In this document: piece after piece, positions 5,711-46,450 of the stretch
Numbering within the stretch: position 1 is the first letter of the stretch
How the letters are laid out: each line of letters opens with the position of its first letter
Assembly: GCA_000004695.1 (NCBI GenBank)
Contig: CM000151.3
Span: forward strand, 7,552,001 to 7,616,000
DNA: 64,000 bases
Origin: Dictyostelium discoideum
Lineage: Eukaryota
Direction of reading: 5' to 3'
Position numbers and translations under genes: made by a program
Notes under the pieces: generated by a model
The model's database searches: none
What the model was told of the DNA's origin: nothing
The model's input: the letters and a program-made list of their open reading frames with translations, nothing else

Positions 5711-6988
5711 TTAAGAAGCTGATGTATAGAAATATCTTGTTCTATAGACATTTAAATAGTTAATTAAAATATCAATTAATGTTTTAAAGATATGAATCTT
5801 TTTCAAAAAGTTTAAAAATTTGTTTAATAAACCATCACCAATAAACTTTTCATAGAATGGTGATCTAATTAAATAGAAAAAAAGTAATTTCTTTCTTCTA
5901 TTCAATTCTTTGGCTTCCAATAAGGTTAATCGTATTTTCTGTTTAAAATTTCCATATTCTGAAAATGATTTGCTTAATAATTCAGTAACTAATGATAAAA
6001 ACCATGGTTTCCAAGACTTTTTACCAAATATACAATATGAAACCCCTAAAAAATTATTAAAATAAAATAAATTAGTATATATGTGTGTGTCTTTTTATTT
6101 ATTTTTTAAATAATACATACAATAAATAACAGGTCTAAATATAAATAAAATCTCACCAATAGTTTTTGTATTATAATCTTTTGGTGGTGGAGGTGGTAAT
6201 AATTTAATTAATGTTGATTCGTTTTGTTGTAATTCTCTCTGTTGTTGATATAATAAATTATTTTCTTGGTTTACAATTCGTTGTTGTTCAAATATTTGAT
6301 CTGATAATGTTCTTCTATTATTATTATTATTATTATTATTATTAAAATTATCATCGTTTGTATTATTATTATTATTAATATTATTATTATCATTATTATT
6401 AATATTATTATTATTATTTATTGACATTGTTACAGCTGGTCTTTTATTTTGGAATTGTTTTTGTTGATTTCGATTATTTTCAAGTATTGTTTTTACATCT
6501 TTTGAAGGTACATAAAATGAATGATGTACCAACATATCACCATTTGTTTTAATTAATAGTTTTAAACGTAAAATTGCTTTTAATAATTCAATTATAAATA
6601 TTATCATCTTTTTAATATTATTATTACTATTATTGTTATTACTATTACTATCGTCATGTTGTTCTCCTTTTTTTGTTGCTAACATTTCAAAGAATAATTC
6701 TAAACTTTGCACTGTTGTAATCCAACGTAAAGTTGTTAAATAATAGGGTGGTGGTACTTTTTCACCATTTGATATTTTATCGATATTATTTGATAATAGA
6801 ATTCCTGATGACCTATAATCTAAATATGATTGCAATATATTTGCTACACTATAAAGACCTTCACTAAACAATTCAGAATCACCATATCTACCTGGTAAAA
6901 ATGTAATTAATGATTTTAATAATCCCAAATGATCACTATTCTCTAATAAAAATATTAAAATATTTGATTTTGGTTGTTTTGGAATCAT
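5711..6988 (-). CDS. pex16: Peroxisomal biogenesis factor 16 (PEX16) orthologue: complement(join(5711..6045,6121..6988))
   Basis: Blocks align to human PEX16: ELFSEGLYSVANIL, LTTLRWITTVQSLELFFEMLATKKG, IIELLKAILRLKLL, KKSWKPWFLSLVTELLSKS, ELNRRKKLLFFYLIRSPFYEKF, and the C-terminal ...YFY. The minus-strand intron runs GTATGT(6120)...TTTTTAG(6046), 75 bp. The phase-1 junction regenerates TGG (Trp) of the conserved SWKPW motif. Confidence 0.85.
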
Positions 6989-7688: not shown

Positions 7689-7691
<3 letters not shown>

Positions 7692-10546
7692 CAATCTGAT
7701 ACGTTGACTGTACAAACTGTACCAAATACAACGAATGTAACGAATACTGAGCATTCAATGTTAGCAGTATGTATATTTATCACCCCCTTTCCTTTCATTT
7801 TTTATTAATTTAATAATAACAATTATAAAATAAACTAATAAATAAAAATTATAGAAAATTGAAGAAAATAGACATATTATTCAAACTATATGGGAAAAAC
7901 AAAATTTAGGTAAATTAACAGAATGTGAACAATTTCAAAAAAGATTACATAGTAATCTTTTATTATTAGCTCCATTAGCTGATCACCAACAAAATTATCA
8001 TGTAAGTGAAAAAAAAAAAAAAAAAACAAAAAAAGCAAAGCAAAGAGTTATACTAACTATGATTTTAATCAATTATTAATGAATAGAAACAACAACAAGC
8101 ATTACTACAGCAACAACAGCAACAACAACAAGCATTACTACAACAACAGCAACAATCACCAGTTACAAATGTAGCAACCAATACACCACCAACTTTACAA
8201 CACTCAATTTCATCACCATCACCAAATAATTTTAACAATAATAATAATGCAAATAATCAATTCCTTTCACCTAATAGTCCTCAAGTTGCAAAATCATCAC
8301 CTTCTCAAAACAATCCATCAACACCAATTGCCAATACTCCAACAACAACAACAACAACAGCCGCAACAACAGCCACAAACACTAATACGATGATGAGTGG
8401 AAGTAGTGGCGGAGTGGTATCACCAGTTTCAAATCAGCAACAACAACAATCGATTCAGTCACCATCACAACAATCAGTTGTACAAAGATCACCATCACAA
8501 TCATTAAATTCATCAGCATCGTCAATTCAAAGTTTACAAAATATTCAAAATACTCAAAATACAATTCAACAATTAACAAACTCTCTAACACAAGTTAAAA
8601 CTATAATTCAACAATATCAATCACAAAATCAACAAGTACCACAAGATGTAATCTCTAGATATCATGAATTCTATTCAATGTTGCAACAACAACAACAAAA
8701 CCTATTACAACAACAATCTTTATTACAACAGCAACAAGCTTTATTACAACAACAACAAGTTGGAAACCCAATGCAACAAAGTAATGATATGCAACCACAA
8801 ACACCACAACAAAATAATATGCAACAACAACAACAACCACAAACACCACAACAAACAAATATGCAACAACCTCAAACTCCACAACAAAATAGTATGCAAC
8901 CATCTCAACAACCAATTACTCAACAAGAATATCAACAAATTTATGATAAAATAGTATCAATGAGTTCACAGATATTATTGTGTAATCAAAATATACAAAA
9001 ATTACAAAGTGAATCCTATGATCCACACGTTTTACAAGGATTACAAAATCAAGTTGCAAATTTAGAGATTGCTCAAGCAAATAGTCTTAGATTCTTACCT
9101 CAACAATATCATGTCGTACTATTCCAACAACAACAGCAACAACAAGCCAATCAACAACAATTACAATTAATGCAAATTAAACAATCAAAGGAATATATGG
9201 TTTTAACACCTGCTCAACAATTAATTTATAATCAACAAATTCAACAAAATCATTACAATCAACAAGTTATACTGAGACAACAACAACAAAAATTAATGGC
9301 AATATTGGAACAACAAAATCAAATGATAGCACAACAACAACAACAACAACATCAAATGCATCAACAACATCAAATGCAACCACAGCAACAACAACAACAA
9401 CATCAAATGCATCAACAATCACCACAACAACCACAACAAATGGGAATGGGAGGTAACCCACCATCACTTGAAATGATATCACCAATGTCTGCTGTAATGA
9501 ATGGTGTAACTAGTCCAATGAATCAAGGGATGATGAGTAGTAATAATGGTATGCCAACAATAACAACATCATTATCTGCAATTTCTCCAACCTCACCAAT
9601 TGGTACAAATTTAAATATGTCCAATCCAACTACAACCACAGTAGCAAATGTCACCACCACCGCAGCCACTACCACCACTGCTTCATCATCTGGTAAAGAG
9701 GAGAAAGAAAAGAAAAAAGATAAAAAAGATAAAGATAAAGATAAGGATAAGGATGATGATGATAAAGAATCTAAAAAAGATAAAAAAGATAAGAAGGATA
9801 AAAAAGCAAGTAAAGAGAAAACTTCGCATTGGACATCCGAAGAACATAATAAATTTTTAGAAGCAGTTCAACAATTTGGTATTAAAGATTACCATGCCAT
9901 AGCTAAATTTGTTCAAACTAGAAATCATCATCAAGTTAGAACTCATGTAAATACTTATTTAAAAAATCAAAAGAAAGCTGAAGCTGCAACATCTTCAACT
10001 CAAGTTAGTACTCCACAACAACAATTACCAATAGTTGGTACTCCACAACAATCTGTTGGTACTCCACAACAACAACAACCACCAATTGAACAAACACCAC
10101 CACCACCACAACAACAACAACAACCACCACAATTAACACCAGAACAACAATTAGCTTCACAACAACAACAAGCAACATTACAATTTCAACAATATCAACA
10201 ACCACAAGATCAACAACAGCAACAATATCAACAATATCAACAATATGATCCTCAACAACAACAACAACAACCACAACAACAACCTCCACCACCACAAACC
10301 ACTCCCCCAAATAATGAAAATAATAATAATATTAATAATAATTTAGAAAACACTAATAATAACGATAATGGTAACAATAATAATAATGAATATAATAGTG
10401 GATTTGATTCAAATAGTGGGTTGAATGACGAGATGGGAATAGGATTATTTGGATCACCTGGTAATAATAGCAATAATAATTTAGGAATTTCCATTGAAGG
10501 TAATAATTTTGATGACAATCCATCAATCTCTTCCCCAGGTGTATAA
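7689..10546 (+). CDS. Q-rich transcription-regulator-like protein with an N-terminal SSXT/SNH (SYT N-terminal homology, GIF-like) domain and a C-terminal SHAQKYF-class Myb/SANT domain: join(7689..7766,7855..8001,8087..10546)
   Basis: Exon 2 encodes IQTIWEKQNLGKLTECEQFQKRLHSNLLLLAPLADHQQN, which is SNH-like. The Myb motif is WTSEEHNKFLEAVQQFGIKDYHAIAKFVQTRNHHQVRTHVNTYL. Donors GTATGT(7767) and GTAAGT(8002), acceptors tAG(7854) and aAG(8086). All phases are 0 and consistent with ORF 8390..10546. Confidence 0.75.
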
Positions 10547-10880: not shown

Positions 10881-11698
10881 AAAAAAAATTAAATAAAAAT
10901 AAAAATAGAAATAGAAATAAAAATAAAAATAAAAATAAAAATAAAAATAAAAATAAAAATAAAAATAAAAATGAAAATGGAATTAATTTTTTTTTTTTTT
11001 GGAATTCAACTCCAAGCTTAATCTAAAGAAAAAAAAAGACGTAATAAATATCCTTCTTCTATAAAAATCTGTGAGAAAATATGGAGTGGGTTCTGTGGGA
11101 AAAATTAAAAAAAATTTTGATGATTTGTTTCCAACCAGGATATTGTGTTCCAAAAGGAACCATCTTAATCTTATGGAATGCACAATACCAAAATATCAGG
11201 GTGTGAAAATTGATTTTTTTTCAATTTTTTTTTTTATTTTTTTTTTTTTATTTTTTTTTTTTTAGTTTTTTTTAACAGATTTGAACAATTTATTATATTT
11301 TTTTTTAGTTTTTTATTTTTTTTATACTAAAACATAAATCCTTTATGTTTGGGTAAGTTTCACATATGTAATAATATATATTATTATTTTTGAAAAAACA
11401 TTTTCTATTTTTTTTTATTTATTTTTTTATTTATTTTTATTCATTAAGTAGAGACTTCCCAAATTGGCAAAACTACAATTTAAATGATAATACTATAAAA
11501 AAAAAAAATAAATAAAAAAAAAAACAAATAAAAAAAGGAATAAAAAAAAAGGAATTAAGAACACCACATTTATTTTAAAGAAAGATGATAATTTTTAAAA
11601 AATTTTTTTTTTTTTTTAATAATTAAAAAAATAATGGTCCACCACACAATTTAATGTTTTTTTTATTTTTTTTATAAGTAATAAGATTTAATTGTTTT

Positions 11699-12057: not shown

Positions 12058-13770
12058 ATGACACCCAGAATTGAAAGTGAGGAATCTGCTCCTCTAGTAA
12101 ATAAAAACAACAACAATAATAACGATAATAATAATAATAATAATGTTGATGAAGAAAACCCTTTAATAATAGAAAGTGGTATTCCAATTGAAGATTTAGA
12201 ACAAAAAAATAAACCATATTTAATTAAAGTACCAAATATTGATAAACCAGATTCTGTAAGTTTTTATTTTTCATTTTTTTTTTTTTTTTTTTTATTAATA
12301 ATAATAATAATAATAAAAATTATTTATTAATTTTTTATTTCTTTTTTTTTTTTAATTAAAAAAAAGAAATGGATAAATTTTAAAACATTATGGGCATTTA
12401 CAGGACCAGGATTTTTAATGAGTATAGCATATTTAGATCCTGGTAATTTAGAGAGTGATATTCAAGCAGGAGCAATGGCAGGATATCAATTACTTTGGGT
12501 ATTATTTTGGTCAACAGTTATTGGATTTTGGTTACAAATGTTAGCATCAAGATTGGGTGTTGTAACAGGTAAACATTTAGCTGAACATTGTAGAGAACAA
12601 TATCCAAAGACACCAAGGCTATTGTTATGGTTAATGACAGAGTTGGCCATTATAGGTAGTGATATTCAAGAGGTTATCGGTACTGCGATTGCCTTGCAAA
12701 TCTTATCGAATGGACATATACCATTATGGGCTGGTGTATTATTCACTGCAGCTGATACATTCACATTTTTATTTTTAGAGAAATATGGTATTAGAAAGTT
12801 GGAGGCATTCTTTTGCTCCTTGATTGCAATCATGGCCATTTCTTTTGGTGTAGAATACATCATTAGCAAGCCCGACCAAATTGAGGTGGTAAAAGGTGTA
12901 TTCATACCATTATGCTCACAGAACAACATTTCCCAAGCTGTGGGTATCTTGGGGGCAGTTGTAATGCCACATAATATCTACTTACATAGCGCTTTGGTAC
13001 AGTCAAGAGAAATCGATAGAAAGAGTGAAACTCAAGTAAAAATCGCAAATAAATACAATCGTTTAGAATCTGCATTCGCATTGATCATCTCTTTTATTAT
13101 TAATCTATTATTGGTATCAGTTTTCGCTAAAGGATTCTATGGAGAAACTACAGAGATTGGGTTATCATCGGCTGCTGATTTCCTTATGGACAAGTATGGT
13201 AAGGTTGCAAAATACATTTGGGCAATCGGTTTATTTAGTGCTGGTCAATGCTCGACTATGACAGGTACCTATAGTGGTCAATTTGTAATGGAAGGTTTCT
13301 TAAAATTAAAAATCGCACCTTGGAAAAGATTATTAATCACCCGTTGTACCGCTATCGTTCCTGCTATGGTTGTTGCTATATTATCGACTTCTCATTTGGA
13401 TTCTTTAGATCAATGGTTAAACATTTTGCAAAGTATTCAATTACCCTTTGCAGTGGTACCTGTATTATTATTTACAAGCTCTGAGAAAATTATGGGTTCA
13501 AAATTTAAAAATCATTGGTTAAATAATCAATTTGTTAGATTTTTATCACTATTAATCATTGCAATCAACATTTATTTAATTATCACTTTCTCAATGCAAA
13601 TCTCTGAATCAGCTTGGATGATTTCAATAGTTTCAATATCTTTCTTTTTTTATTTCATTTTCATAGTTTATTTATCAATGGGTCAAGAAAACTTTAATTC
13701 TATGACTAAAAAAATCAAAAATTTATTTAATAATAATTCAAATCAAACTTATAATAATATTAATTATTAA
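12058..13770 (+). CDS. nramp1: Nramp (SLC11) divalent metal transporter Nramp1: join(12058..12255,12367..13770), 533 aa
   Basis: Has the DPGN motif and a FTGPGFLMSIAYLDPGNLESDIQAGA... consensus, with long conserved transmembrane blocks. Donor GTAAGT at 12256, acceptor aAG at 12366. Predicted length of 533 aa equals the length reported for Dictyostelium Nramp1. Confidence 0.9.
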
Positions 13771-20575: not shown

Positions 20576-21184
20576 ATGGCCACTCTTTTTGATATTTTAA
20601 ATACTCTTAATAATAATAATTATTTTGAAAATTGTAAAAGACAATGTTCAATAAATAAAAGCAATAAAACAATTATTGATATAATACCACCAATGGATGT
20701 AACAATGACAAATGATAAACTAATCATTGAAACAGAGTTAGCAGGTATTTCAAAAGATCATATTGAAATTGACATTAAAGATTCAATACTCACTATTCAA
20801 GGCGAAAAGAAAAAGAATTTAAATAAACAACAACAACAATTAGTTATTGAAAAATCAACAACATCATCAACAACATTAGATAGCAAAGAAGATGAAGCAT
20901 CAATTGAGGAGTTTGAAGATGATATTAAACCAAAATCAAAGTCTACAGTCACCACCACCGCCACTAAAGAGAATAAAGAAGATGAAAATAAAACAAAATT
21001 AAGTGATAAAAAGTTTATTTCAGAAAGATCATTTGGTAATTTTAAAAGATATTTAGATTTAACAAAAGTTTTATATCAATTAGATTTAAATTCAATCAAT
21101 ACTCAATTTGAAAATGGTTTATTAACAATTACAATCAATAAGAAATTACATTACTCAAATACAATTAAAATTAATATAAATTAA
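20576..21184 (+). CDS. Small heat-shock protein, alpha-crystallin/Hsp20 family (hspG-like), array copy A
   Basis: Carries the Hsp20 signature: [41 protein letters not shown]...[16 protein letters not shown]...[12 protein letters not shown]. Confidence 0.8.
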
Positions 21185-22079: not shown

Positions 22080-22712
22080 ATGGCAACAATCTTTGATATT
22101 TTAAATACTCTTAATAATAATAATAATAATAATAATTTTGAAAATTGTAAAAGACAATGTCCAATTAATAAAAGCAATAAAACGATTATTGATAAACTAC
22201 CACCAATGGATGTAACAATGACAAATGATAAATTAATCATTGAAACAGAGTTAGCAGGTATTTCAAAAGATCATATTGAAATTGATATTAAAGATTCAAT
22301 ACTCACTATTCAAGGTGAAAAGAAAAAGAATTTAAATAAACAACAACAACAATTAGTTATTGAAAAATCAACATCATCATCAACATTAGATAGCAAAGAA
22401 GATGAGCCATCGATTGAAGAGTTTGAAGATGATATTAAACCAAAATCAAAATCTGACAATACAACTGTATCTACTACAACCACCGCCACCACTAAAGAGA
22501 ACAAAGAAGATGAAAATAAAACAAAATCAACTGATAAAAAGTTTATTTCAGAAAGATCATTTGGTAATTTTAAAAGATATTTAGATTTAACAAAAATTTT
22601 ATATCAATTAGATTTAAATTCAATCAATACTCAATTTGAAAATGGTTTATTAACAATTACAATCAATAAGAAATTACATTATTCAAATACAATTAAAATT
22701 AATATAAATTAA
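22080..22712 (+). CDS. Small heat-shock protein (hspG-like), array copy B
   Basis: More than 90% identical to copy A; same alpha-crystallin motifs. Confidence 0.8.
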
Positions 22713-23966: not shown

Positions 23967-24590
23967 ATGGCAACAATCTTTGATATTTTAAATACTCTTA
24001 ATAATAATAATTTTGAAAATTGTAAAAGACAATGTTCAACCAATAAAAGCAATAAAACAATTATTGATATACTACCACCAATGGATGTAACAATGACAAA
24101 TGATAAACTAATCATTGAAACAGAGTTAGCAGGTATTTCAAAAGATCAAATTGAAATTGACATTAAAGATTCAATACTCACCATTCAAGGTGAAAAGAAA
24201 AAGAATTTAAATAAACAACAACAACAATTAGTTATTGAAAAATCATCAACATCACCATCATCATCAACATTAGATAGCAAAGAAAACGGACCATCAATTG
24301 AAGAGTTTGAAGATGATATTAAGCCAAAATCAACCACCAGTACTACAACTGTATCTACAGCCACCACCACAAAAGAGAATAAAGAAGATGAAAATAAAAC
24401 AAAATCAAGTGATAAAAAGTTTATTTCAGAAAGATCATTTGGTAATTTTAAAAGATATTTAGATTTAACAAAAGTTTTATATCAATTAGATTTAAATTCA
24501 ATCAATACTCAATTTGAAAATGGTTTATTAACAATTACAATCAATAAGAAATTACATTACTCAAATACAATTAAAATTAATATAAATTAA
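23967..24590 (+). CDS. Small heat-shock protein (hspG-like), array copy C
   Basis: Intact 207-aa ORF with alpha-crystallin motifs. Confidence 0.8.
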
Positions 24591-26925: not shown

Positions 26926-27561
26926 ATGGCAACAATCTTTGATATTTTAAATACTCTTAATAATAATAATAATAATAATTTTGAAAATTGTAAAAGACAA
27001 TGCTCAACCAATAAAAGCAATAAGACAATTATTGATATACTACCACCAATGGATGTAACAATGACAAATGATAAACTAATCATTGAAACAGAGTTAGCAG
27101 GTATTTCAAAAGATCATATTGAAATTGACATTAAAGATTCAATACTCACTATTCAAGGTGAAAAGAAAAAGAATTTAAATAAACAACAACAACAATTAGT
27201 TATTGAAAAATCATCAACATCACCATCATCATCAACATTAGATAGCAAAGAAGATGAACCATCAATTGAAGAGTTTGAAGATGATATTAAACCAAAATCA
27301 ACCACCAGTACTACAACTGTATCTACTACCACCACCGCCACTAAAGAGAATAAAGAAGATGAAAATAAAACAAAACCAACTGATAAAAAGTTTATTTCAG
27401 AAAGATCATTTGGTAATTTTAAAAGATATTTAGATTTAACAAAAGTTTTATATCAATTAGATTTAAATTCAATCAATACTCAATTTGAAAATGGTTTATT
27501 AACAATTACAATCAATAAGAAATTACATTATCCAAATCCAATTAAAATTAATATAAATTAA
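26926..27561 (+). CDS. Small heat-shock protein (hspG-like), array copy D
   Basis: Intact 211-aa ORF. Confidence 0.8.
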
Positions 27562-29913: not shown

Positions 29914-30519
29914 ATGGCAACAATCTTTGATATTTTAAATACTCTTAATAATAATAATTTTAAAAATTGTAAAAGACAATGTCCAATTAATAAAAGCAAT
30001 AAAACAATTATTGATATAATACCATCAATGGATGTAACAATGACAAATGATAAACTAATCATTGAAACAGAGTTAGCAGGTATTTCAAAAGATGATATTG
30101 AAATTGACATTAAAGATTCAATACTCACTATTCAAGGTGAAAAGAAAAAGAATTTAAATAAACAACAACAACAATTAGTTAGTGAAAAATCATCAACATC
30201 ACCATCAACATTAGATAGCAAAGAAGATGAACCATCAATTGAAGAGTTTGAAGATGACATTAAACCAAAATCAGCCACCAGTACTACAACCACCACCACT
30301 AAAGAGAACAAAGATGATGAAAATAAAACAAAATCAAGTGATAAAAAGTTTATTTCAGAAAGATCATTTGGTAATTTTAAAAGATATTTAGATTTAACAA
30401 AAGTTTTATATCAATTAGATTTAAATTCAATCAATACTCAATTTGAAAATGGTTTATTAACAATTACAATCAATAAGAAATTACATTACTCAAATACAAT
30501 TAAAATTAATATAAATTAA
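29914..30519 (+). CDS. Small heat-shock protein (hspG-like), array copy E
   Basis: Intact 201-aa ORF. Confidence 0.8.
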
Positions 30520-31828: not shown

Positions 31829-32574
31829 ATTTATTTTATTTATTTATTTATTTATTTATTTATTAATTTATTTTTATTTATTTGTTAATTAATAGGGATA
31901 AAATTAAAAATGAAAATAATATTTTTTTTTAATAAATTACTCTATAAAAAATCAACCTTAAATTTAAATGATAACCAATGTTTTTTAAATTAATATAAAA
32001 AAAATTAATTTAAAAACATTAAATATTATTAAATTTTATTAATAATAAAACACGAAAAATACTAATAATTAATAAAACTAATAAAAGAATTATTTATAAA
32101 TTACCACCAATGATTGAAACCGAATTGATAATTTTCTTTTTTAAACATTTTTATGGAGATAAAAAAAAAAATAAAAAAAAAAAAAAAAATAAAAAAAAAA
32201 TATAAAAAAAACAGATATAAAATAGAACAAATAAGAAAAAAAAAAATTAATTAATTAATTAAAATAATGAAAAAGTGTTTTTAAAAAAATGACAAAGTGT
32301 TTTTGTTTTAATTATGATAAATTAATATTATTTTAGATATATTTTTTTTATTTTTTTAATTTCAATTTAAATTACAAATCATACATTATATTGTTCATCA
32401 GTTGAATTTTCTTACATAATTGCATAAACATCTTGCATAAATAATTAAAAATAAATAAAAAAACAAAAAGTGTACACATTGTGATTTTAAATTTTAAATC
32501 TTTATTTAATTTTATTTTATTTTATTTTATTTATTTTTTTCTTTAATTATTAAAAGTTTATCCAATTAGGATAG

Positions 32575-32690
32575 AATTAAAAATTGCAGGCCGAATTGTT
32601 TCGGACTGCGTTGTGGAATAGTTTGCAAAAAGCACTAACAGTGGATCCCTTATCGGTCACGCCCTACTGCTTTGGTCCCAGCGTAAAGAC
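32575..32690 (-). ncRNA. Candidate small non-coding RNA gene: a GC-rich island of about 110 nt in AT-rich intergenic DNA, with a DUSE-like upstream element
   Basis: The plus strand has ggccgaattgtttcggactgcgttgtgg...ggatcccttatcggtcacgccctactgctttggtcccagcg. On the minus strand the motif TTGCCCATAAC (plus 32745-32755) lies about 60 bp upstream of the island. The minus-strand transcript would end ...GGCCTGCAATTTTT (a T-run). It contains the local hairpin CCGAA-TTGT-TTCGG. Confidence 0.3.
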
Positions 32691-37218: not shown

Positions 37219-39516
37219 TTATTTGTTAATTTTTTTTAACTTGTTTAAAAGAACACTTTCACCTTTTTTACGATAAATTAAAAAACCAATTGCACCAATT
37301 GCGGAAACACCAACAACACTTGCAACTACAGCGACTGGGATAACATAACTTTTTCTTCCATCTTTTGAATTACCACATTCATTTTTAAATTCTGGACTAA
37401 TTAAGACTGAGAAATCTGGATCAATGATACAAGATTCAATGCAATGTGGTAAATCTAATGAAATTGAAATTGAATCCTTACTTTCATTTTTCATTGAAGT
37501 TAATAAATATGTTGGTCTTCCGTCTGAAACTAACTTGTTTATAAATCTTCCTTCTAAAATTTTATTATTTTTTGAAATTTTAATATAATTGAAAGTAGAT
37601 TCACCATCTTTATTATTGATTGTATTAATTGATGTATCCATTTCATTACATTCATTATCATCTGAATTTATTTGATCTACTGATGAAACTAATTCTAATT
37701 TTAAAGTATTTAAGTTATTTTTGTATGAATAGTTATAAATTCCAATACTAAATTTAATTGAACCATATTGTAAATTAAATGTTTCATCTGCAAATGTATA
37801 TTCTTTACCATTTCTGTTTGTAATTTCTTCAATCTTTGAAATAATTGAGCAATTGCTTTGAATTGTTTGAGATAATGTGTAAATAATTTCATTTTTGCTG
37901 TTTGTTGAATTTGTTGTCCAATTGTTTCGAAGAGAATATGTTGCTACTATATTACCATTAAAATCAATTTCGTATAATGATTTGAAAAAGATTTGGAATT
38001 GAACTTCTTGATTTGAAATTGTTGTATTACCAGTACCTGGATCGACACCAGTATCAGTTGGTGGGTTTCCGTTATTACCTCCATCGCTATCGCTATTGCT
38101 TCCTCCGTTATTACCTCCGCCTGGATTAATGATACCACTACAATCTGCACCATTGAATCCATTATTACATTTACATTGACCATTTAAAGTATTGCATGTA
38201 CCTTGATTTGAACATTTATTTGGACATGTTTGGTTATTAATATTTAAATATTGATATTTATCATAAGAGTATGTAATGTTATTTTGAGTTACAACTACAA
38301 GCTTTACACCAAAACCTGGAGGTGCTGTACAATTTAAAACTGTTGTTGAATTATATAGTAATGGACATGGTAAATTTCCAATTGTGATTGATAGATTATT
38401 ATGAGTATCACCAAAGAAGCCAATAAAGCTTGCAACACCACCATTGGTTGTTGAAGGTATTGTTGAAGTTATATAATGGTATGGTATTAAACAAGTTGGA
38501 CCTGACCAAGAATTTTCTTTACAATTGCATTCACCTTTAGTTGTGTCACATACACCATTTGAATTACAATCTAGTGGATCACACTCAATAAATAATATTG
38601 AACAATCACTACCTCGATGAGATGAATCACAAATACATTCACCTATGGTAGTATTGCAATAACCATTACCTGAACAATCTGGAACTGAACATTCAATACC
38701 TAAGCAATCACTACCTATAAATCCTGGTAAACATTTACAAGTACCTGAACTTAAATCGCAAATTGAATTAACTCCAACTGATGTTGAACAATCATTTGGA
38801 CAAACTTGATTATTATCGAAATTTGATTCGATCTTAATATATGCTTTTACATTGAATGAATCTTTTTCAATTGAAATTATTTGTAATGGAATTGTTGAAT
38901 TTGAAATTGGTAATTGTTTACCACTTTCCATTGTACATTGTGCTCCGAAAAAGTCACTACTTGTAATTGTTGAACAATTACCTACATTTTGAATTTGAAC
39001 TTGTTGATTTGTAAATCCTAAATAACTTGAAAAATGTGTACCACTTACTTGAATTTCATTACCTGTGCTTTTAATTAAAACTGATTTTATAATTGGTGGA
39101 ATATTATAATTTGTTGGGAATGTATATGTAACATTATTTGGAGTTGTGAATAAAACTGGAAAATATTCAACATTTTTCAAATTATTATTAGCTCCTACCA
39201 TTGTTGCTGTATAATTTTTACCATTTTGATTAATAACATATGTTGTTGGATCTAATGAAATTGTTAAATTAATTTTCCATAATGTTACATCGAATCCAAT
39301 ATCATTACCAGTTACCATTACTTTATTAAATATACCATCATTAATTAATTCTACTTTTGGTCTAAATGTTGTGCATGGTGTATTTGTATTAAAGTTTGAA
39401 AACTTATTACTAGCAAATCTTGAAAACATTGATTTTTGTGTTAATTTTGAATAACTATTTACTGTTGTTACATTAAAATAACATGCAAAACAAGATGGAA
39501 CTAATCTGAATATTTG

Positions 39517-41643: not shown

Positions 41644-44600
41644 TTATTTGTTAATTTTTTTTAACTTGTTTAAAAGAACACTTTCACCTTTTTTACGATA
41701 AATTAAAAAACCAATTGCACCAATTGCGGAAACACCAACAACACTTGCAACTACAGCGACTGGGATAACATAACTTTTTCTTCCATCTTTTGAATTACCA
41801 CATTCATTTTTAAATTCTGGACTAATTAAGACTGAGAAATCTGGATCAATGATACAAGATTCAATGCAATGTGGTAAATCTAATGAAATTGAAATTGAAT
41901 CCTTACTTTCATTTTTCATTGAAGTTATTAAATATGTTGGTCTTCCGTCTGAAACTAACTTGTTTATAAATCTTCCTTCTAAAATTTTATTATTTTTTGA
42001 AATTTTAATATAGTTGAAAGTAGATTCACCATCTTTATTATTGATTGTATTAATTGATGTATCCATTTCATTACATTCATTATCATCTGAATTTATTTGA
42101 TCTACTGATGAAACTAATTCTAATTTTAAAGTATTTAAATTATTTTTGTATGAATAGTTATGAATTCCAATACTAAATTTAATTGAACCATATTGTAAAT
42201 TAAATGTTTCATCTGCAAATGTATATTCTTTACCATTTCTGTTTGTAATTTCTTCAATCTTTGAAATAATTGAGCAATTGCTTTGAATTGTTTGAGATAA
42301 TGTGTAAATAATTTCATTTTCGGTATCTGTTGAGTTTGTTGTCCAACTGTTTTGAAGAGAATATGTTGCTACTATATTACCATTAAAATCAATTTCGTAT
42401 AATGATTTGAAAAAGATTTGGAATTGAACTTCTTGATTTGAAATTGTTGTATTACCAGTACCTGGATCGACACCAGTATCAGTTGGTGGGTTTCCGTTAT
42501 TACCTCCATCGCTATCGCTATTGCTTCCTCCGTTATTACCTCCGCCTGGATTAATGATACCACTACAATCTGCACCATTGAATCCATTATTACATTTACA
42601 TTGACCATTTAAAGTATTGCATGTACCTTGATTTGAACATTTATTTGGACATGTTTGATTGTTAATATTTAAATATTGATATTTATTATAAGAGTATGTA
42701 ATGTTATTTTGAGCTACAACTACAAGCTTTACACCAAAACCTGGAGGTGCTGTACAATTTAAAACTGTTGTTGAATTATATAGTAATGGACATGGTAAAT
42801 TTCCAATTGTGATTGATAGATTATTATGAGTATCACCAAAGAAGCCAATAAAGCTTGCAACACCACCATTGGTTGTTGAAGGTATTGTTGAAGTTATATA
42901 ATGGTATGGTATTAAACAAGTTGGACCTGACCAAGAATTTTCTTTACAATTGCATTCACCTTTAATTGTATCACACACACCGTTTGAATTACAATCTACT
43001 GGATCACAATCAATATATGGTAATGAACAGTCACTACCTTGATTTGAAGGTCCACAATCACAAGTACCAGTTTGATTATTACATGTATTTAAACCACCAT
43101 TACATGCTACCCCAGTAGTCATTGGACATTCAACAAATGGTACTGAGCAATCATTTCCTTGGTGAGATGAATCACAATTACAAATACCAGTTTCATTATT
43201 ACATGTATTTAAACCACCATTGCATGGTAATCCATTAGATTCTGGACAATCAATTACTGGTAATGAGCAATCACTTCCTTGGTGAGATGAATCACAATTA
43301 CAAGTACCAGTTTGATTATTACATGTATTTAAACCACCATTACATGGCAATCCATTAGATGTTGGGCAATCAATTACTGGCAATGAGCAATCACTACCTT
43401 GATTTGAAGGTCCACAATCACAAGTACCAGTTTGATTATTACATGTATTTAAACCACCGTTACATGGTAATGAACTGAATATTGGACATGGAACCAATGG
43501 CAATGAGCAATTACTTCCTTGAAACGATGAGCTACAATTACAAGTACCAGTTTGGTTATTACATGTATTTAAACCACCGTTACATGGTAATCCACTAACT
43601 ATTGGGCATTCAATCAATGGTAATGAGCAATCACTTCCTTGGTGAGATGAATCACAACCACAAGTACCAGTTTGATTATTACAAGTGTTTAGACCGCCGT
43701 TACATGGTAATCCACTAACAATTGGGCATTCAATCAATGGTAATGAGCAATCATTTCCTTGGTGAGATGAATCACAACCACAAGTACCAGTTTTATTATT
43801 ACAAGTGTTTAAACCACCGTTACATGGTAATCCACTAACTATTGGGCATTCAATCAATGGTAATGAGCAATCATTTCCTTGGTGAGATGAATCACAAGTA
43901 CAAATACCAGTTTGATTATTACAAGTATTTGAGCCGCCATTACATGGTAAAGAGCCATAAATTGGACAAGGAATGAGTGGTAATAAACAATCGCTACCTT
44001 GATAAGATGAATTACAAATACATTCACCTATGGTATAATCACAATGACCATTACCTGAACAATCTGGAACTGAACATTCAATACCTAAACAATCACTACC
44101 AACAAATCCTGGTAAACATTTACAAGCACCTGAACTTAAATCGCAAATTGAATTAACTCCAACTGATGTTGAACAATCATTTGGACAAACTTGATTATTA
44201 TCGAAATTTGATTCGATCTTAATATATGCTTTTACATTGAATGAATCTTTTTCAATTGAAATTATTTGTAATGGAATTGTTGAATTTGAAATTGGTAATT
44301 GTTTACCACTTTCCATTGTACATTGTGCTCCGAAAAAGTCACTACTTGTAATTGTTGAACAATTACCTACATTTTGAATTTGAACTTGTTGATTTGTAAA
44401 TCCTAAATAACTTGAAAAATGTGTACCACTTACTTGAATTTCATTACCTGTGCTTTTAATTAAAACTGATTTTATAATTGGTGGAATATTATAATTTGTT
44501 GGGAATGTATATGTAACATTATTTGGAGTTGTGAATAAAACTGGAAAATATTCAACATTTTTCAAATTATTATTAGCTCCTACCATTGTTGCTGTATAAT

Positions 44601-46450
44601 TTTTACCATTTTGATTAATAACATATGTTGTTGGATCTAATGAAATTGTTAAATTAATTTTCCATAATGTTACATCGAATCCAATATCATTACCAGTTAC
44701 CATTACTTTATTAAATATACCATCATTAATTAATTCTACTTTTGGTCTAAATGTTGTGCATGGTGTTTTTGTATTAAAGTTTGAAAACTTATTACCAGAA
44801 AATCTTGTCAACATTGATTTTTGTGTTAATTTTGAATAACTATTTATCGTTGTTACATTAAAATAACACGCAAAACAAGATGGAATTAATCTAAATTTTT
44901 AAATTAATAAAAAAAAATAAAGATTAGTAAGTAATTTGAATAAATAAATAATTTATAATCAACATACCCTGTTAAATTTCCAGTTGGGACAGATAGTTCA
45001 GTTGTGCACCATGAATTATCAACTGTACCAACAAAAAGATTTGGAGAATTTGTAAAATAATATGAACCACCAGAACCTAGAAATTTTGTGGGGAATTGTG
45101 TATTTTTTATTGAATTAAAGAAGGAAACTGTAGAATATGGACCCATATTAAGGTTATTTGGAAAAACCGTCAAGTTACCTGATAAAAAATTAAAATCACA
45201 ACTCTCTGGAGGAATTATTGGGAGTGCCCCATTCAAATGATAAAGATTTCCTGGAAAAAGGGTAATTGCTGTATAGGTGTGATTAACGAATGATGACATA
45301 TCATAATATTCAGTTGGTGCATCAAGTGTCGCACTTAGATAAAATTTTGATACTTTTGAATTGTCAAATAAATATTGATTAATTTGTCCAAGAGCACGGT
45401 ATATTGATAATTGATTGGATGATATTGTTTTCATAAAATTAATAGTTGAAAAATCAAATATTAGAGAAAATTGTAAATTTATATTGTTTAATTTGTACAT
45501 TGAAAAAGATACTATGTTATGTACATTGGCATAAAAATTCCCTAATACTGAGGTTCCAGATGGATTTGCGCCATCAGAGTTTAGATAAACATATACATTA
45601 GCAGGAGAAATGTCCAAATTATATATTCCACTATTAATATGCTCCAATCTCAATGTTGTACCATTTAAATCATTTGAATGTATAGTCCTTTTTATTTTTA
45701 AAATAAAAAAAAATAAAAAAAATAAAAAAAATAAAAAAATAAATAAATGAATAAAATTTATGTAAGAAATAAGAATTAGATTTTAGTTTTTTTTTTTTTT
45801 TTGTTTTTTTTTTTTTTATAGAAAATAAATATTTACAAGGATCTAATTGAAGGTAAAGGTTGAGTAATTCCACCTACCACTCCATTAATATTGATATACT
45901 TTGCTATTTGGACACTGGATATTTTTGTATATATAAAATCTGGTGATACTTTTAAATTATTAACCGTTCTTTAATAATAATAATTTTCAATTTTTTAGTA
46001 AATAATTTTGTTGAGAAAAAAAAAAAAAAAAAATTTAAAATACTTACAATTCCACCATCAGAGTAAAACAGGTTGAGAAATTAGATGGAAATAATATATT
46101 ATTTGTACCACCAGGTATTAAAAACCATCCTAAAAATAAAAAAATAAAAAAATAAAAATTTAATATTTATTAGTTTTGATATTAAATTAAAAAAAAAAAT
46201 TAAAAAATTAAAAAATTAAAATTAAACTTATTTCTTTTGAATATAAATTCCCAGAACAAGAAATATCAATTGTGGTGGTTGACAAATGTTTGAATAAAAA
46301 TCGAATGTGTCTTTTGTGAAATTTGGTAGAATAAAAATTTCATTTAAATAACCAACACGTATATTCATCTGGAACAAGAGGGGGGACTTGAGAATAACAC
46401 CCGACAATTATTAAAAATATAAAAAAAAGTTGAGATTTAATTAAAACCAT
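41644..46450 (-). CDS. Tandem paralog of the preceding EGF-repeat membrane glycoprotein, with an expanded EGF-repeat array. Exons: complement(join(41644..44890,44968..45687,45837..45968,46047..46128,~46226..46450)). The 5' exon is apparently disrupted.
   Basis: The last exon (ORF 41644..44814) is open back to the acceptor at 44891. The splice sites were mapped as for gene 1. Exon 1 contains an in-frame TGA and a short out-of-frame stretch relative to the paralog (see findings). Confidence 0.5.
42985..43990 (-). repeat. Tandem in-frame repeat of about 120 bp (40 aa), about 8 units, inside the last exon of the second EGF-repeat gene; absent from the first paralog
   Basis: Repeated protein unit: LPLIECPIVSGLPCNGGLNTCNN(Q/K)TGTC(G/N)CDSSHQGNDCS. 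The nucleotide units are more than 85% identical: 'caatcacttccttggtgagatgaatcacaa..acaagtaccagtttgattattacatgtatttaaaccaccattacatgg...'. Confidence 0.8.

Follow-up and report, generated by a model that had tools for sequence, protein, structure and literature searches.

The mybK gene lies on the forward strand of the window, the 64,000-nucleotide stretch of Dictyostelium discoideum DNA that we analysed (CM000151.3, 7,552,001 to 7,616,000; all positions below are those of the window). It runs from an ATG at 7689 to the end of its stop codon at 10546, exactly where an earlier note on this DNA had placed it, and has three exons. Exon 1 (7689–7766, aa 1–26) ends at a GTATGT donor at 7767, exon 2 (7855–8001, aa 27–75) encodes the core of an SNH (SSXT) domain, and exon 3 (8087–10546) encodes aa 76–894 and the stop. 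Both introns are canonical (GT..AG). Intron 1 (7767–7854) is 88 nt long, has the form GTATGT...ATAG and is 84% A+T, and intron 2 (8002–8086) is 85 nt long with the form GTAAGT...TACTAAC...ATAG. The A+T content of the two introns (81–84%) is higher than that of the three exons (64–77%). In the translation of exon 3, a long Q-rich region is followed by a K/D/E-rich charged tract (9692–9820, aa 611–653) directly before a single Myb repeat (9827–9961, aa 656–700), and by a Q/P/N-rich C-terminal tail with the stop codon (9962–10546, aa 701–894). A Pfam scan found no domain in this tail.

Translation showed that a transcript keeping intron 1 would meet an early stop, while one keeping intron 2 would give a 100-aa product with the SNH domain only. 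In exon 3 the open frame begins precisely at the splice acceptor, as the TAG of the acceptor is itself the preceding in-frame stop, and this opening is 101 codons 5' of the first ATG in the exon. The 303 nt before this ATG (8087–8389) are coding-like, with an A+T content of 64% compared to 88–91% in the flanks.

The spliced product has 894 residues, a computed mass of 100,910 Da and a computed pI of 6.31. In dictyBase, DDB_G0276877 ('myb-like protein K', mybK, on chromosome 2 of D. discoideum AX4) is listed with a mass of 100,912 Da and a pI of 6.32, so the three-exon model is very probably the curated model. Adjacent open reading frames matched proteins of AX4 chromosome 2 exactly, DDB_G0276879 among them. 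By mass, pI and neighbouring reading frames, therefore, the gene is D. discoideum mybK, which is already known but unstudied. Neither the 894-aa model nor a 718-aa reading frame had an exact match on look-up. In a word-indexed protein search, the full-length query gave no significant hit among the 8,000 Q-rich candidates at which it saturated, and queries with the SNH domain only or with aa 351–421 had no word in common with any entry. Orthologues of mybK are present in all five dictyostelid genomes that have been compared, and mybK has been listed as spore-enriched, alongside snf2a and swi3.

The possibility that exons 1 and 2 are part of a separate upstream gene, raised in the earlier note, did not hold: the gene upstream of mybK encodes a homologue of Pex16 and lies on the other strand, so exons 1 and 2 cannot belong to it. 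A scan of the upstream region for bacterial-type promoters and terminators is uninformative for a eukaryote.

The SNH domain, the Myb repeat and the region between them

The N-terminus of MybK (aa 1–84) matched SSXT (PF05030) at 58.3 bits (E 5.6e-16), far above the gathering cut-off of 26.2 bits. The match covers aa 28–75 (7858–8001) and begins at position 13 of the 62 in the model, leaving the earlier part of the Pfam model unmatched. Helix 1 of the domain begins in the final residues of exon 1 (EHSMLA), and our own SNH profile, built from 150 SNH relatives, aligned over the exon 1/2 junction. The earlier description of an SNH domain encoded by a separate small exon is thus right for the core, which is in exon 2, but the start of helix 1 is supplied by the end of exon 1.

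Detection of the domain by Pfam depended on the length of the query. N-terminal pieces of up to 450 aa scored 53–58 bits (53–57 bits for 149–450 aa), while for queries of 600, 750 and 894 aa the Pfam scan did not list SSXT even at E ≤ 10. So abrupt a loss resembles the action of a search filter and not weak similarity. A bias filter as the general cause was only partly supported, as our own profile found the domain in full-length MybK with default filters (69.8 bits). This confines the loss to the Pfam model and scan.

A search among 1.84 billion proteins returned 196 SNH relatives of exon 2 at E ≤ 0.001, at about 50% identity. The domain of MybK is ~50% identical to those of animal SS18 and plant GIF, and plant GIFs were among the relatives retrieved (P0035, for example). 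The only solved relative is a BRG1(QLQ)–SS18(SNH) fusion (PDB 7VRB), the SS18 chain of which matches exon 2 at E 2.7e-11. According to the paper describing 7VRB, I32, L54 and A65 of SS18 form three hydrophobic cores with BRG1, and glutamate at all three positions largely disrupts binding. These residues align with I35, L57 and A68 of MybK, and MybK also keeps all of the positions that are invariant in the SNH family (N, G, L, N, L, L, A, D). An AlphaFold2 (AF2) prediction for exon 2, based on a 40-sequence alignment, gave a helix-turn-helix with helices at residues 2–16 and 20–45 (mean pLDDT 86.3), and this predicted two-helix hairpin agrees with the SS18 helices at 19–39 and 44–74. Foldseek found no matches to the 49-residue model in the PDB because the model is too short.

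The Myb repeat scored 41–46 bits against Myb_DNA-binding (PF00249; cut-off 24.4) and 36.4 bits against the TIGR01557 myb_SHAQKYF profile (cut-off 29.3), which bears out the earlier assignment to a single repeat of the SHAQKYF class. The signature motif itself, in the recognition helix (helix 3), reads THVNTYL in MybK, so that H and Y are kept and the other positions are changed (S to T, A to V, Q to N, K to T and F to L). The repeat has a net charge of +4, and its best single-domain match in the PDB was the Entamoeba SHAQKYF Myb 6NVZ (28 bits). It shares the pattern W-x2-EEH-x-FL...G...D..I...V.TR...QV.(S/T)H with Myb proteins of this class, such as plant CCA1/RVE/DIVARICATA, Dictyostelium MybE and Entamoeba 6NVZ, but differs from them in the THVNTYL signature and in the presence of SSXT, which we found in no described member. 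Class membership is what suggests that MybK may bind DNA in a sequence-specific manner.

The two domains of MybK are separated by about 580 residues of Q-rich sequence. The long Q-rich linker noted earlier is thus present, but is ordinary for this organism, as glutamine-rich low-complexity sequence has been reported in about 10% of Dictyostelium proteins. Single-sequence AF2 of aa 225–485 had low confidence overall and predicted two helical hairpins only, one at 8537–8755 (aa 226–298, pLDDT ~81–88) and one at 8921–9088 (aa 354–409, pLDDT ~76–79), which has the motif NQNIQKL. No Pfam family scored above its cut-off on the first hairpin. By eye, aa 346–386 (NQNIQKL...) resembled a second, degenerate SNH repeat. 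Our own SNH profile scored it at −11.6 bits, and the region of the second hairpin is therefore not a detectable SNH repeat.

SSXT and Myb domains together in other eukaryotes

Four further eukaryotic sequences have SSXT and Myb within one gene, in each case with SSXT N-terminal and Myb C-terminal. P0141 (264 aa) is a complete open reading frame in a transcript (TSA prefix GILK01), P0127 (180 aa) is one uninterrupted reading frame on three metagenome contigs, P0138 has 224 aa, and L070 is a metagenome locus with SSXT and Myb on split exons. The combination, which had been called unusual, is therefore rare but not unique. It stands out among the best 150 SNH relatives, where Myb was the sole other Pfam family to occur more than once. 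Just one of the 80 metagenome loci examined (L070) had a Myb domain downstream of SNH. The best SNH relative (P0010, on contig L001) is a short gene for an SNH domain standing alone, without a Myb domain in its vicinity, and many marine metagenome loci likewise encode stand-alone short SNH proteins.

All four sequences resemble MybK in a shared Myb core, G-x-x-D-(L/I/Y)...(V/I)-(G/Q)-(S/T)-R...(Q/E)-V, which marks a related subtype, and MybK and P0141 share 43% identity over the Myb repeat. The repeats of P0141 and L070 score as strong members of the SHAQKYF class (55.4 and 49.2 bits with TIGR01557), and their motifs, SHLQKYL and SHLQKHQ, are closer to SHAQKYF than that of MybK. The Myb domains of P0127 (YFRQLM) and P0138 (SKLQKM), two of the five SSXT–Myb sequences, fall below the SHAQKYF cut-off. 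As THVNTYL is without the Q and K of SHAQKYF and these two relatives are sub-cut-off, DNA binding may be weak or absent. P0141, P0127 and P0138 are small and have short linkers, in contrast to MybK with its 894 residues and long spacer. No report of such a protein turned up when the literature was searched for SSXT combined with Myb or SHAQKYF. That the combination recurs in no fewer than four eukaryotic sequences besides MybK suggests a small conserved family.

MybK as a candidate SWI/SNF subunit

What might a protein with these two domains do? SMARCL proteins are, by published description, a conserved family whose members bind the QLQ domain within SWI/SNF, and in a 2022 survey across eukaryotes D. 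discoideum was scored as lacking the SS18/SMARCL subunit. We propose, with a probability of roughly 0.6, that MybK is the Dictyostelium equivalent of this subunit (SS18 in animals, GIF in plants, Snf11 and Snf30 in yeasts), with a Myb module in addition. The N-terminal SNH hairpin would pack on the QLQ helices of a Snf2-type ATPase, as SS18 does on BRG1, making MybK a putative member of the complex. The Q-rich, mostly disordered middle might act as the counterpart of the QPGY/QG region, and the basic C-terminal Myb repeat would touch DNA or possibly chromatin, with whatever specificity it may have. The remodeller would then carry a targeting module of its own, as opposed to relying solely on a separate DNA-binding partner. 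The proposal draws on the gene structure, the presence of both domains, the conserved SS18 interface residues and the recurrence of SSXT–Myb. The earlier note had seen a sequence-specific factor with a built-in recruiting module; both domains are there, and in our view a SMARCL subunit plus a Myb module is the better reading of the protein.

Placing the emphasis on the Myb repeat instead would make MybK mainly a sequence-specific transcription factor, whose SNH domain transiently recruits SWI/SNF or another QLQ protein to promoters without its being a stable subunit. The repeat is basic and scores above the SHAQKYF cut-off, and expression of mybK is cell-type-enriched, as for many developmental transcription factors. 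In addition, GRF transcription factors of plants have a QLQ domain to which the SNH domain of GIF also binds, so that SNH–QLQ contacts extend beyond the ATPase. However, descriptions of SS18, Snf11 and Snf30 present them as stable subunits, dedicated to SWI/SNF, that bind the ATPase's QLQ domain, and the 2022 survey contains no other SMARCL protein from D. discoideum, which suggests that MybK fills that slot. We therefore regard the transcription-factor reading as unlikely, and note that it differs from the SMARCL-subunit reading in degree and not in kind. A further alternative keeps MybK as a SMARCL subunit but takes its Myb repeat for a SANT-type module, which would contact histones or other proteins and confer no DNA sequence specificity. 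Single Myb/SANT repeats of chromatin complexes often do not bind DNA, and both the degenerate motifs of MybK, P0127 and P0138 and the sub-cut-off scores of the latter two are in keeping with such a role. The net charges of MybK and P0141 (+4 to +5), on the other hand, are typical of DNA-binding Myb repeats and unlike those of acidic SANT domains; SHLQKY or SHLQKH is retained in P0141 and L070, and among solved structures the nearest single-domain relatives are Myb proteins that bind DNA. A SANT-type module thus appears somewhat less probable again than a transcription factor.

Both of these alternatives, and the SMARCL-subunit reading itself, take the fusion to be real. If it were an artefact of the gene model, exons 1 and 2 would form a small SS18L2-like gene for an SNH-only protein, and exon 3 would be a separate Myb gene starting from an internal ATG such as that at 8390. 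The SNH-only product of intron 2 retention would fit this, as would the stand-alone short SNH proteins encoded at L001 and at many marine loci. Against it, the spliced product equals the curated protein in mass and pI, the 303 nt of exon 3 between a consensus acceptor, preceded by a TACTAAC branch-site motif, and the first ATG of the exon are open and coding-like, and the difference in A+T content between introns and exons follows the three-exon model. SSXT and Myb are also joined in a single reading frame in P0127, where it is uninterrupted, and in P0141, where it is complete within a transcript. An artefact is consequently very improbable.

Comparison with known SNH proteins brings out what would be new in the SMARCL subunit that we propose. 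The animal BAF subunits SS18, SS18L1 (CREST) and SS18L2 resemble MybK at the N-terminus, where the SNH domains share about 50% identity over 47 residues. SS18 further shares the predicted helix-turn-helix and the three hydrophobic interface residues, followed by a long low-complexity Q-rich region, but it has no DNA-binding domain and its C-terminal region is QPGY-rich and tyrosine-dependent. The corresponding part of MybK is rich in Q, N, S, T and P and contains the two predicted helical hairpins, and the Myb repeat is extra at its C-terminus. As Q-rich sequence is so common in Dictyostelium, its presence is no evidence of homology with the QPGY region. Plant GIF1/AN3, GIF2 and GIF3 likewise have SNH at the N-terminus and then a Q-rich region. 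In plants the DNA-binding WRC domain is on a separate protein, GRF, which binds SNH through its own QLQ domain, whereas MybK carries its DNA-binding-type domain, a Myb repeat, on the SNH polypeptide itself, in which we saw no QLQ domain. In function, an SNH and a DNA-binding domain on one chain parallel GRF (with its WRC domain) and GIF working together as a unit. The SS18-SSX protein of synovial sarcoma has the same layout: SNH at the N-terminus for docking in BAF, a middle that is disordered and, at the C-terminus, a module for chromatin targeting that would redirect the remodeller. It is, however, the product of a somatic translocation, and its SSX tail targets Polycomb-marked chromatin, whereas mybK is a normal gene, conserved in dictyostelids, that encodes a Myb repeat. 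The likeness at the C-terminus is one of analogy and not of homology.

A more far-reaching version of the SMARCL-subunit reading is that SSXT–Myb proteins form an old protist family of SMARCL subunits with their own sequence-specific DNA-binding domain, undescribed in the literature that we searched. MybK and its dictyostelid orthologues would then be the sole SMARCL proteins in Dictyostelium, which would hard-wire the remodeller in part to a DNA motif recognised by Myb. We put this forward as a tentative and rather doubtful extension; were it correct, MybK would be a natural counterpart of the SS18-SSX and GRF–GIF fusions.

If MybK is indeed a SMARCL subunit, the reported SS18/SMARCL gap in D. 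discoideum is filled by a gene annotated only as Myb-like, and a known family gains a new architecture with no current ideas overturned. Dictyostelium, which is genetically workable, would become a model for an SNH domain that is joined in nature to a module of the DNA-binding type, with a bearing on the redirection of SWI/SNF by the SS18-SSX oncofusion and by engineered GRF–GIF chimeras. A domain of 53–58 bits drops out of a standard Pfam scan when the Q-rich portion of MybK is included in the query, which may explain why the SNH domain was overlooked, and domains in other proteomes rich in low-complexity sequence may have been overlooked likewise.

Gene model and identity of mybK

The window is AT-rich (about 80–85% A+T), and for several ORFs there is an exact match among the D. 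discoideum AX4 chromosome 2 proteins, including DDB_G0276879, DDB_G0277131 and CHMP7. The mybK gene (7689–10546, +) has three exons (7689–7766, 7855–8001 and 8087–10546, all +), separated by introns of 88 nt (GTATGT...ATAG) and 85 nt (8002–8086; GTAAGT...TACTAAC...ATAG). The introns are 81–84% A+T, compared to 64–77% for the exons. The computed product (894 aa, 23.5% glutamine, 100,910 Da, pI 6.31) agrees in mass and pI with the published table values for DDB_G0276877, “myb-like protein K” (100,912 Da, pI 6.32), which identifies the gene as mybK. The three-exon model proposed in the earlier note, borne out by its splice signals and by this agreement, is very probably the curated one; mybK is already named and curated, and so is not a new gene. 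The upstream neighbour, a divergent Pex16 peroxin homologue about 700 bp away (6095–6988, −), lies on the opposite strand, and therefore exons 1 and 2 cannot belong to it. Downstream lies an Nramp metal transporter homologue (12418–13770, +). Hypothetical retention of intron 2 would introduce a stop after 100 aa, giving an SNH-only protein similar in size to short SS18L2-type proteins.

An SNH domain and a Myb repeat in one protein

The N-terminal 84 residues of MybK matched the Pfam SSXT model of the SNH domain (PF05030) well above threshold (58.3 bits, E 5.6e-16; cut-off 26.2 bits). An exhaustive HMMER search of 1.84 billion representative proteins, with exon 2 alone as the query, returned 196 relatives at E ≤ 0.001, typically 45–60% identical over 44–48 residues, and SSXT was present in all of the best 150. 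Those inspected included animal SS18-like sequences, one plant GIF and green-algal proteins. The only solved relative was a BRG1(QLQ)–SS18(SNH) fusion (PDB 7VRB, E 2.7e-11). According to the paper on this structure, SS18 I32, L54 and A65 build three hydrophobic cores with BRG1, and a triple glutamate mutant of SS18 largely loses BRG1 binding. MybK I35, L57 and A68 align with these three residues, and its SNH domain is predicted to form a helix-turn-helix (pLDDT 86, AF2 with a 40-sequence alignment). The closest relative of the domain (61% identity) is a short stand-alone ORF (1678–1935, +) on a compact, eukaryotic JGI metagenome contig, Ga0480383_0004875; it stops directly after the SNH domain, and no Myb was found near it.

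The Pfam scan detected SSXT in N-terminal fragments of 84, 149, 300 and 450 aa (53–58 bits) but did not list it, even at E ≤ 10, for queries of 600, 750 or 894 aa. Such an abrupt loss with query length suggests that a search filter, and not a weak match, is responsible. Our own profile, built from the best 150 of the 196 relatives, found the domain in full-length MybK (69.8 bits), so that a filter as the cause stays tentative. The loss fits a 2022 survey of SWI/SNF subunits, which scored SMARCL (SS18/GIF) as absent in D. discoideum, and a dictyostelid transcription factor catalogue of 2019, whose searchable text and supplements do not mention SSXT. mybK is listed in this catalogue, and it has orthologues in each of the five compared genomes (DPU_G0071950, DLA_07223, PPL_05536 plus PPL_05147, and DFA_10142). 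We found no description of SSXT in MybK, or of a wider SSXT–Myb family, in the searchable literature, where SSXT in combination with Dictyostelium, Myb or SHAQKYF is also unreported; a database may already show the domain.

The C-terminal part of MybK contains one Myb repeat (aa 656–700), which scored 41–46 bits against PF00249 (cut-off 24.4) and has a net charge of +4. As the earlier note had it, the repeat is of the SHAQKYF class (TIGR01557, 36.4 bits; cut-off 29.3), with THVNTYL in place of the signature motif. Of the solved structures, an Entamoeba SHAQKYF-family Myb (6NVZ) gives it the best single-domain match. The long Q-rich linker also noted there consists of about 580 residues, rich in Q, N, S, T and P. 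Two helical hairpins are predicted within it (aa 226–298 and 354–409; pLDDT about 76–88, single-sequence AF2), and neither matched a known family above threshold. Our SNH profile did not detect either of them as an SNH repeat. At 9530–9610 (aa 485–520) a glutamine tract is interspersed with histidines (QQQQQQHQMHQQHQMQPQQQQQQHQMHQQ). It bears a resemblance, and no more, to the Q-rich, histidine-containing sequence of yeast SNF5, a reported sensor of pH in starvation. As about 10% of Dictyostelium proteins are reported to contain glutamine-rich low-complexity sequence, the Q-rich region as a whole should not be taken as a QPGY homologue.

Related architectures and possible function

In three of the best 150 SNH relatives, SSXT is likewise followed by a Myb repeat towards the C-terminus: P0141 (264 aa, a complete EukProt transcriptome ORF), P0127 (180 aa, a single uninterrupted ORF on three metagenome contigs) and P0138 (224 aa). 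Besides SSXT, Myb was the only Pfam family found in more than one of these 150. A metagenome scan returned 80 SNH-bearing loci. One, L070, has SNH in two exons and Myb in two exons 500–740 nt downstream on the same strand; no Myb was found near SNH in the others, which are mostly marine metagenome contigs. The Myb repeats are of one subtype and share the core G-x-x-D-(L/I/Y)...(V/I)-(G/Q)-(S/T)-R...(Q/E)-V, with 43% identity between MybK and P0141. P0141 (55.4 bits) and L070 (49.2 bits) are strong SHAQKYF-class members; P0127 and P0138 do not reach the cut-off. The three relatives and L070 show that the architecture is rare but real, occurring in several distinct eukaryotic sequences. The combination is thus unusual, as first claimed, yet not confined to MybK.

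SMARCL proteins (SS18, Snf11, Snf30, Snf80) are described as a conserved family whose members bind to QLQ helices in the Snf2-type ATPase and belong specifically to the SWI/SNF (BAF) branch of these complexes. MybK is best read as the putative Dictyostelium SMARCL equivalent, because its SNH domain is strong, its interface residues are intact and the 2022 survey holds no other D. discoideum SMARCL. Its SNH domain would dock on Snf2, MybK would be a subunit of the SWI/SNF complex, and the Myb repeat may supply that complex with a DNA or chromatin contact of its own. A flattened table lists mybK as spore-enriched alongside snf2a and swi3, which weakly backs this reading. The layout parallels that of the SS18–SSX oncofusion (SNH, disordered middle, C-terminal targeting module) and, in function, the plant GRF–GIF pair.

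Alternatively, MybK could act as a transcription factor and recruit SWI/SNF only in a transient manner, which differs from a SMARCL equivalent in degree. The Myb repeat might also work like a SANT module, without binding DNA, which the degenerate signature motif makes conceivable. That the fusion is a gene-model artefact is unlikely, given the splice signals, the agreement with the curated mass and pI, and the single-ORF versions of the architecture elsewhere. Moreover, the frame of exon 3 opens exactly at the acceptor, with 303 nt of open, coding-like sequence ahead of its first ATG. The SNH–Myb fusion itself is confirmed, and its interpretation in the earlier note, as a DNA-binding factor with its own SWI/SNF-recruiting module, appears largely right.

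Other features of the window

Downstream of mybK, about 200 nt (11000–11200) at 28–32% G+C lie inside intergenic DNA of 5–15% G+C. The overlapping ORFs are short (41–66 aa) and no Rfam match was found, even at E ≤ 1; the stretch may represent a small exon or a non-coding RNA not yet described. A gene for the U4 spliceosomal snRNA lies at 32559–32690 (−), where the full-length Rfam model was matched (RF00015, 52.3 bits; gathering score 46). Five ORFs of 201–211 aa, spaced by 1.5–3 kb on the same strand (20576–21184, 22080–22712, 23967–24590, 26926–27561 and 29914–30519, all +), each encode a C-terminal HSP20/alpha-crystallin domain, and thus form a tandem array of paralogous genes for small heat-shock proteins. 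Two neighbouring ComC-type ORFs, of 736 aa (37219–39429, −) and 1056 aa (41644–44814, −), share a pair of beta-sandwich domains, EGF repeats and a ComC supersandwich domain, and are likely tandem paralogues.
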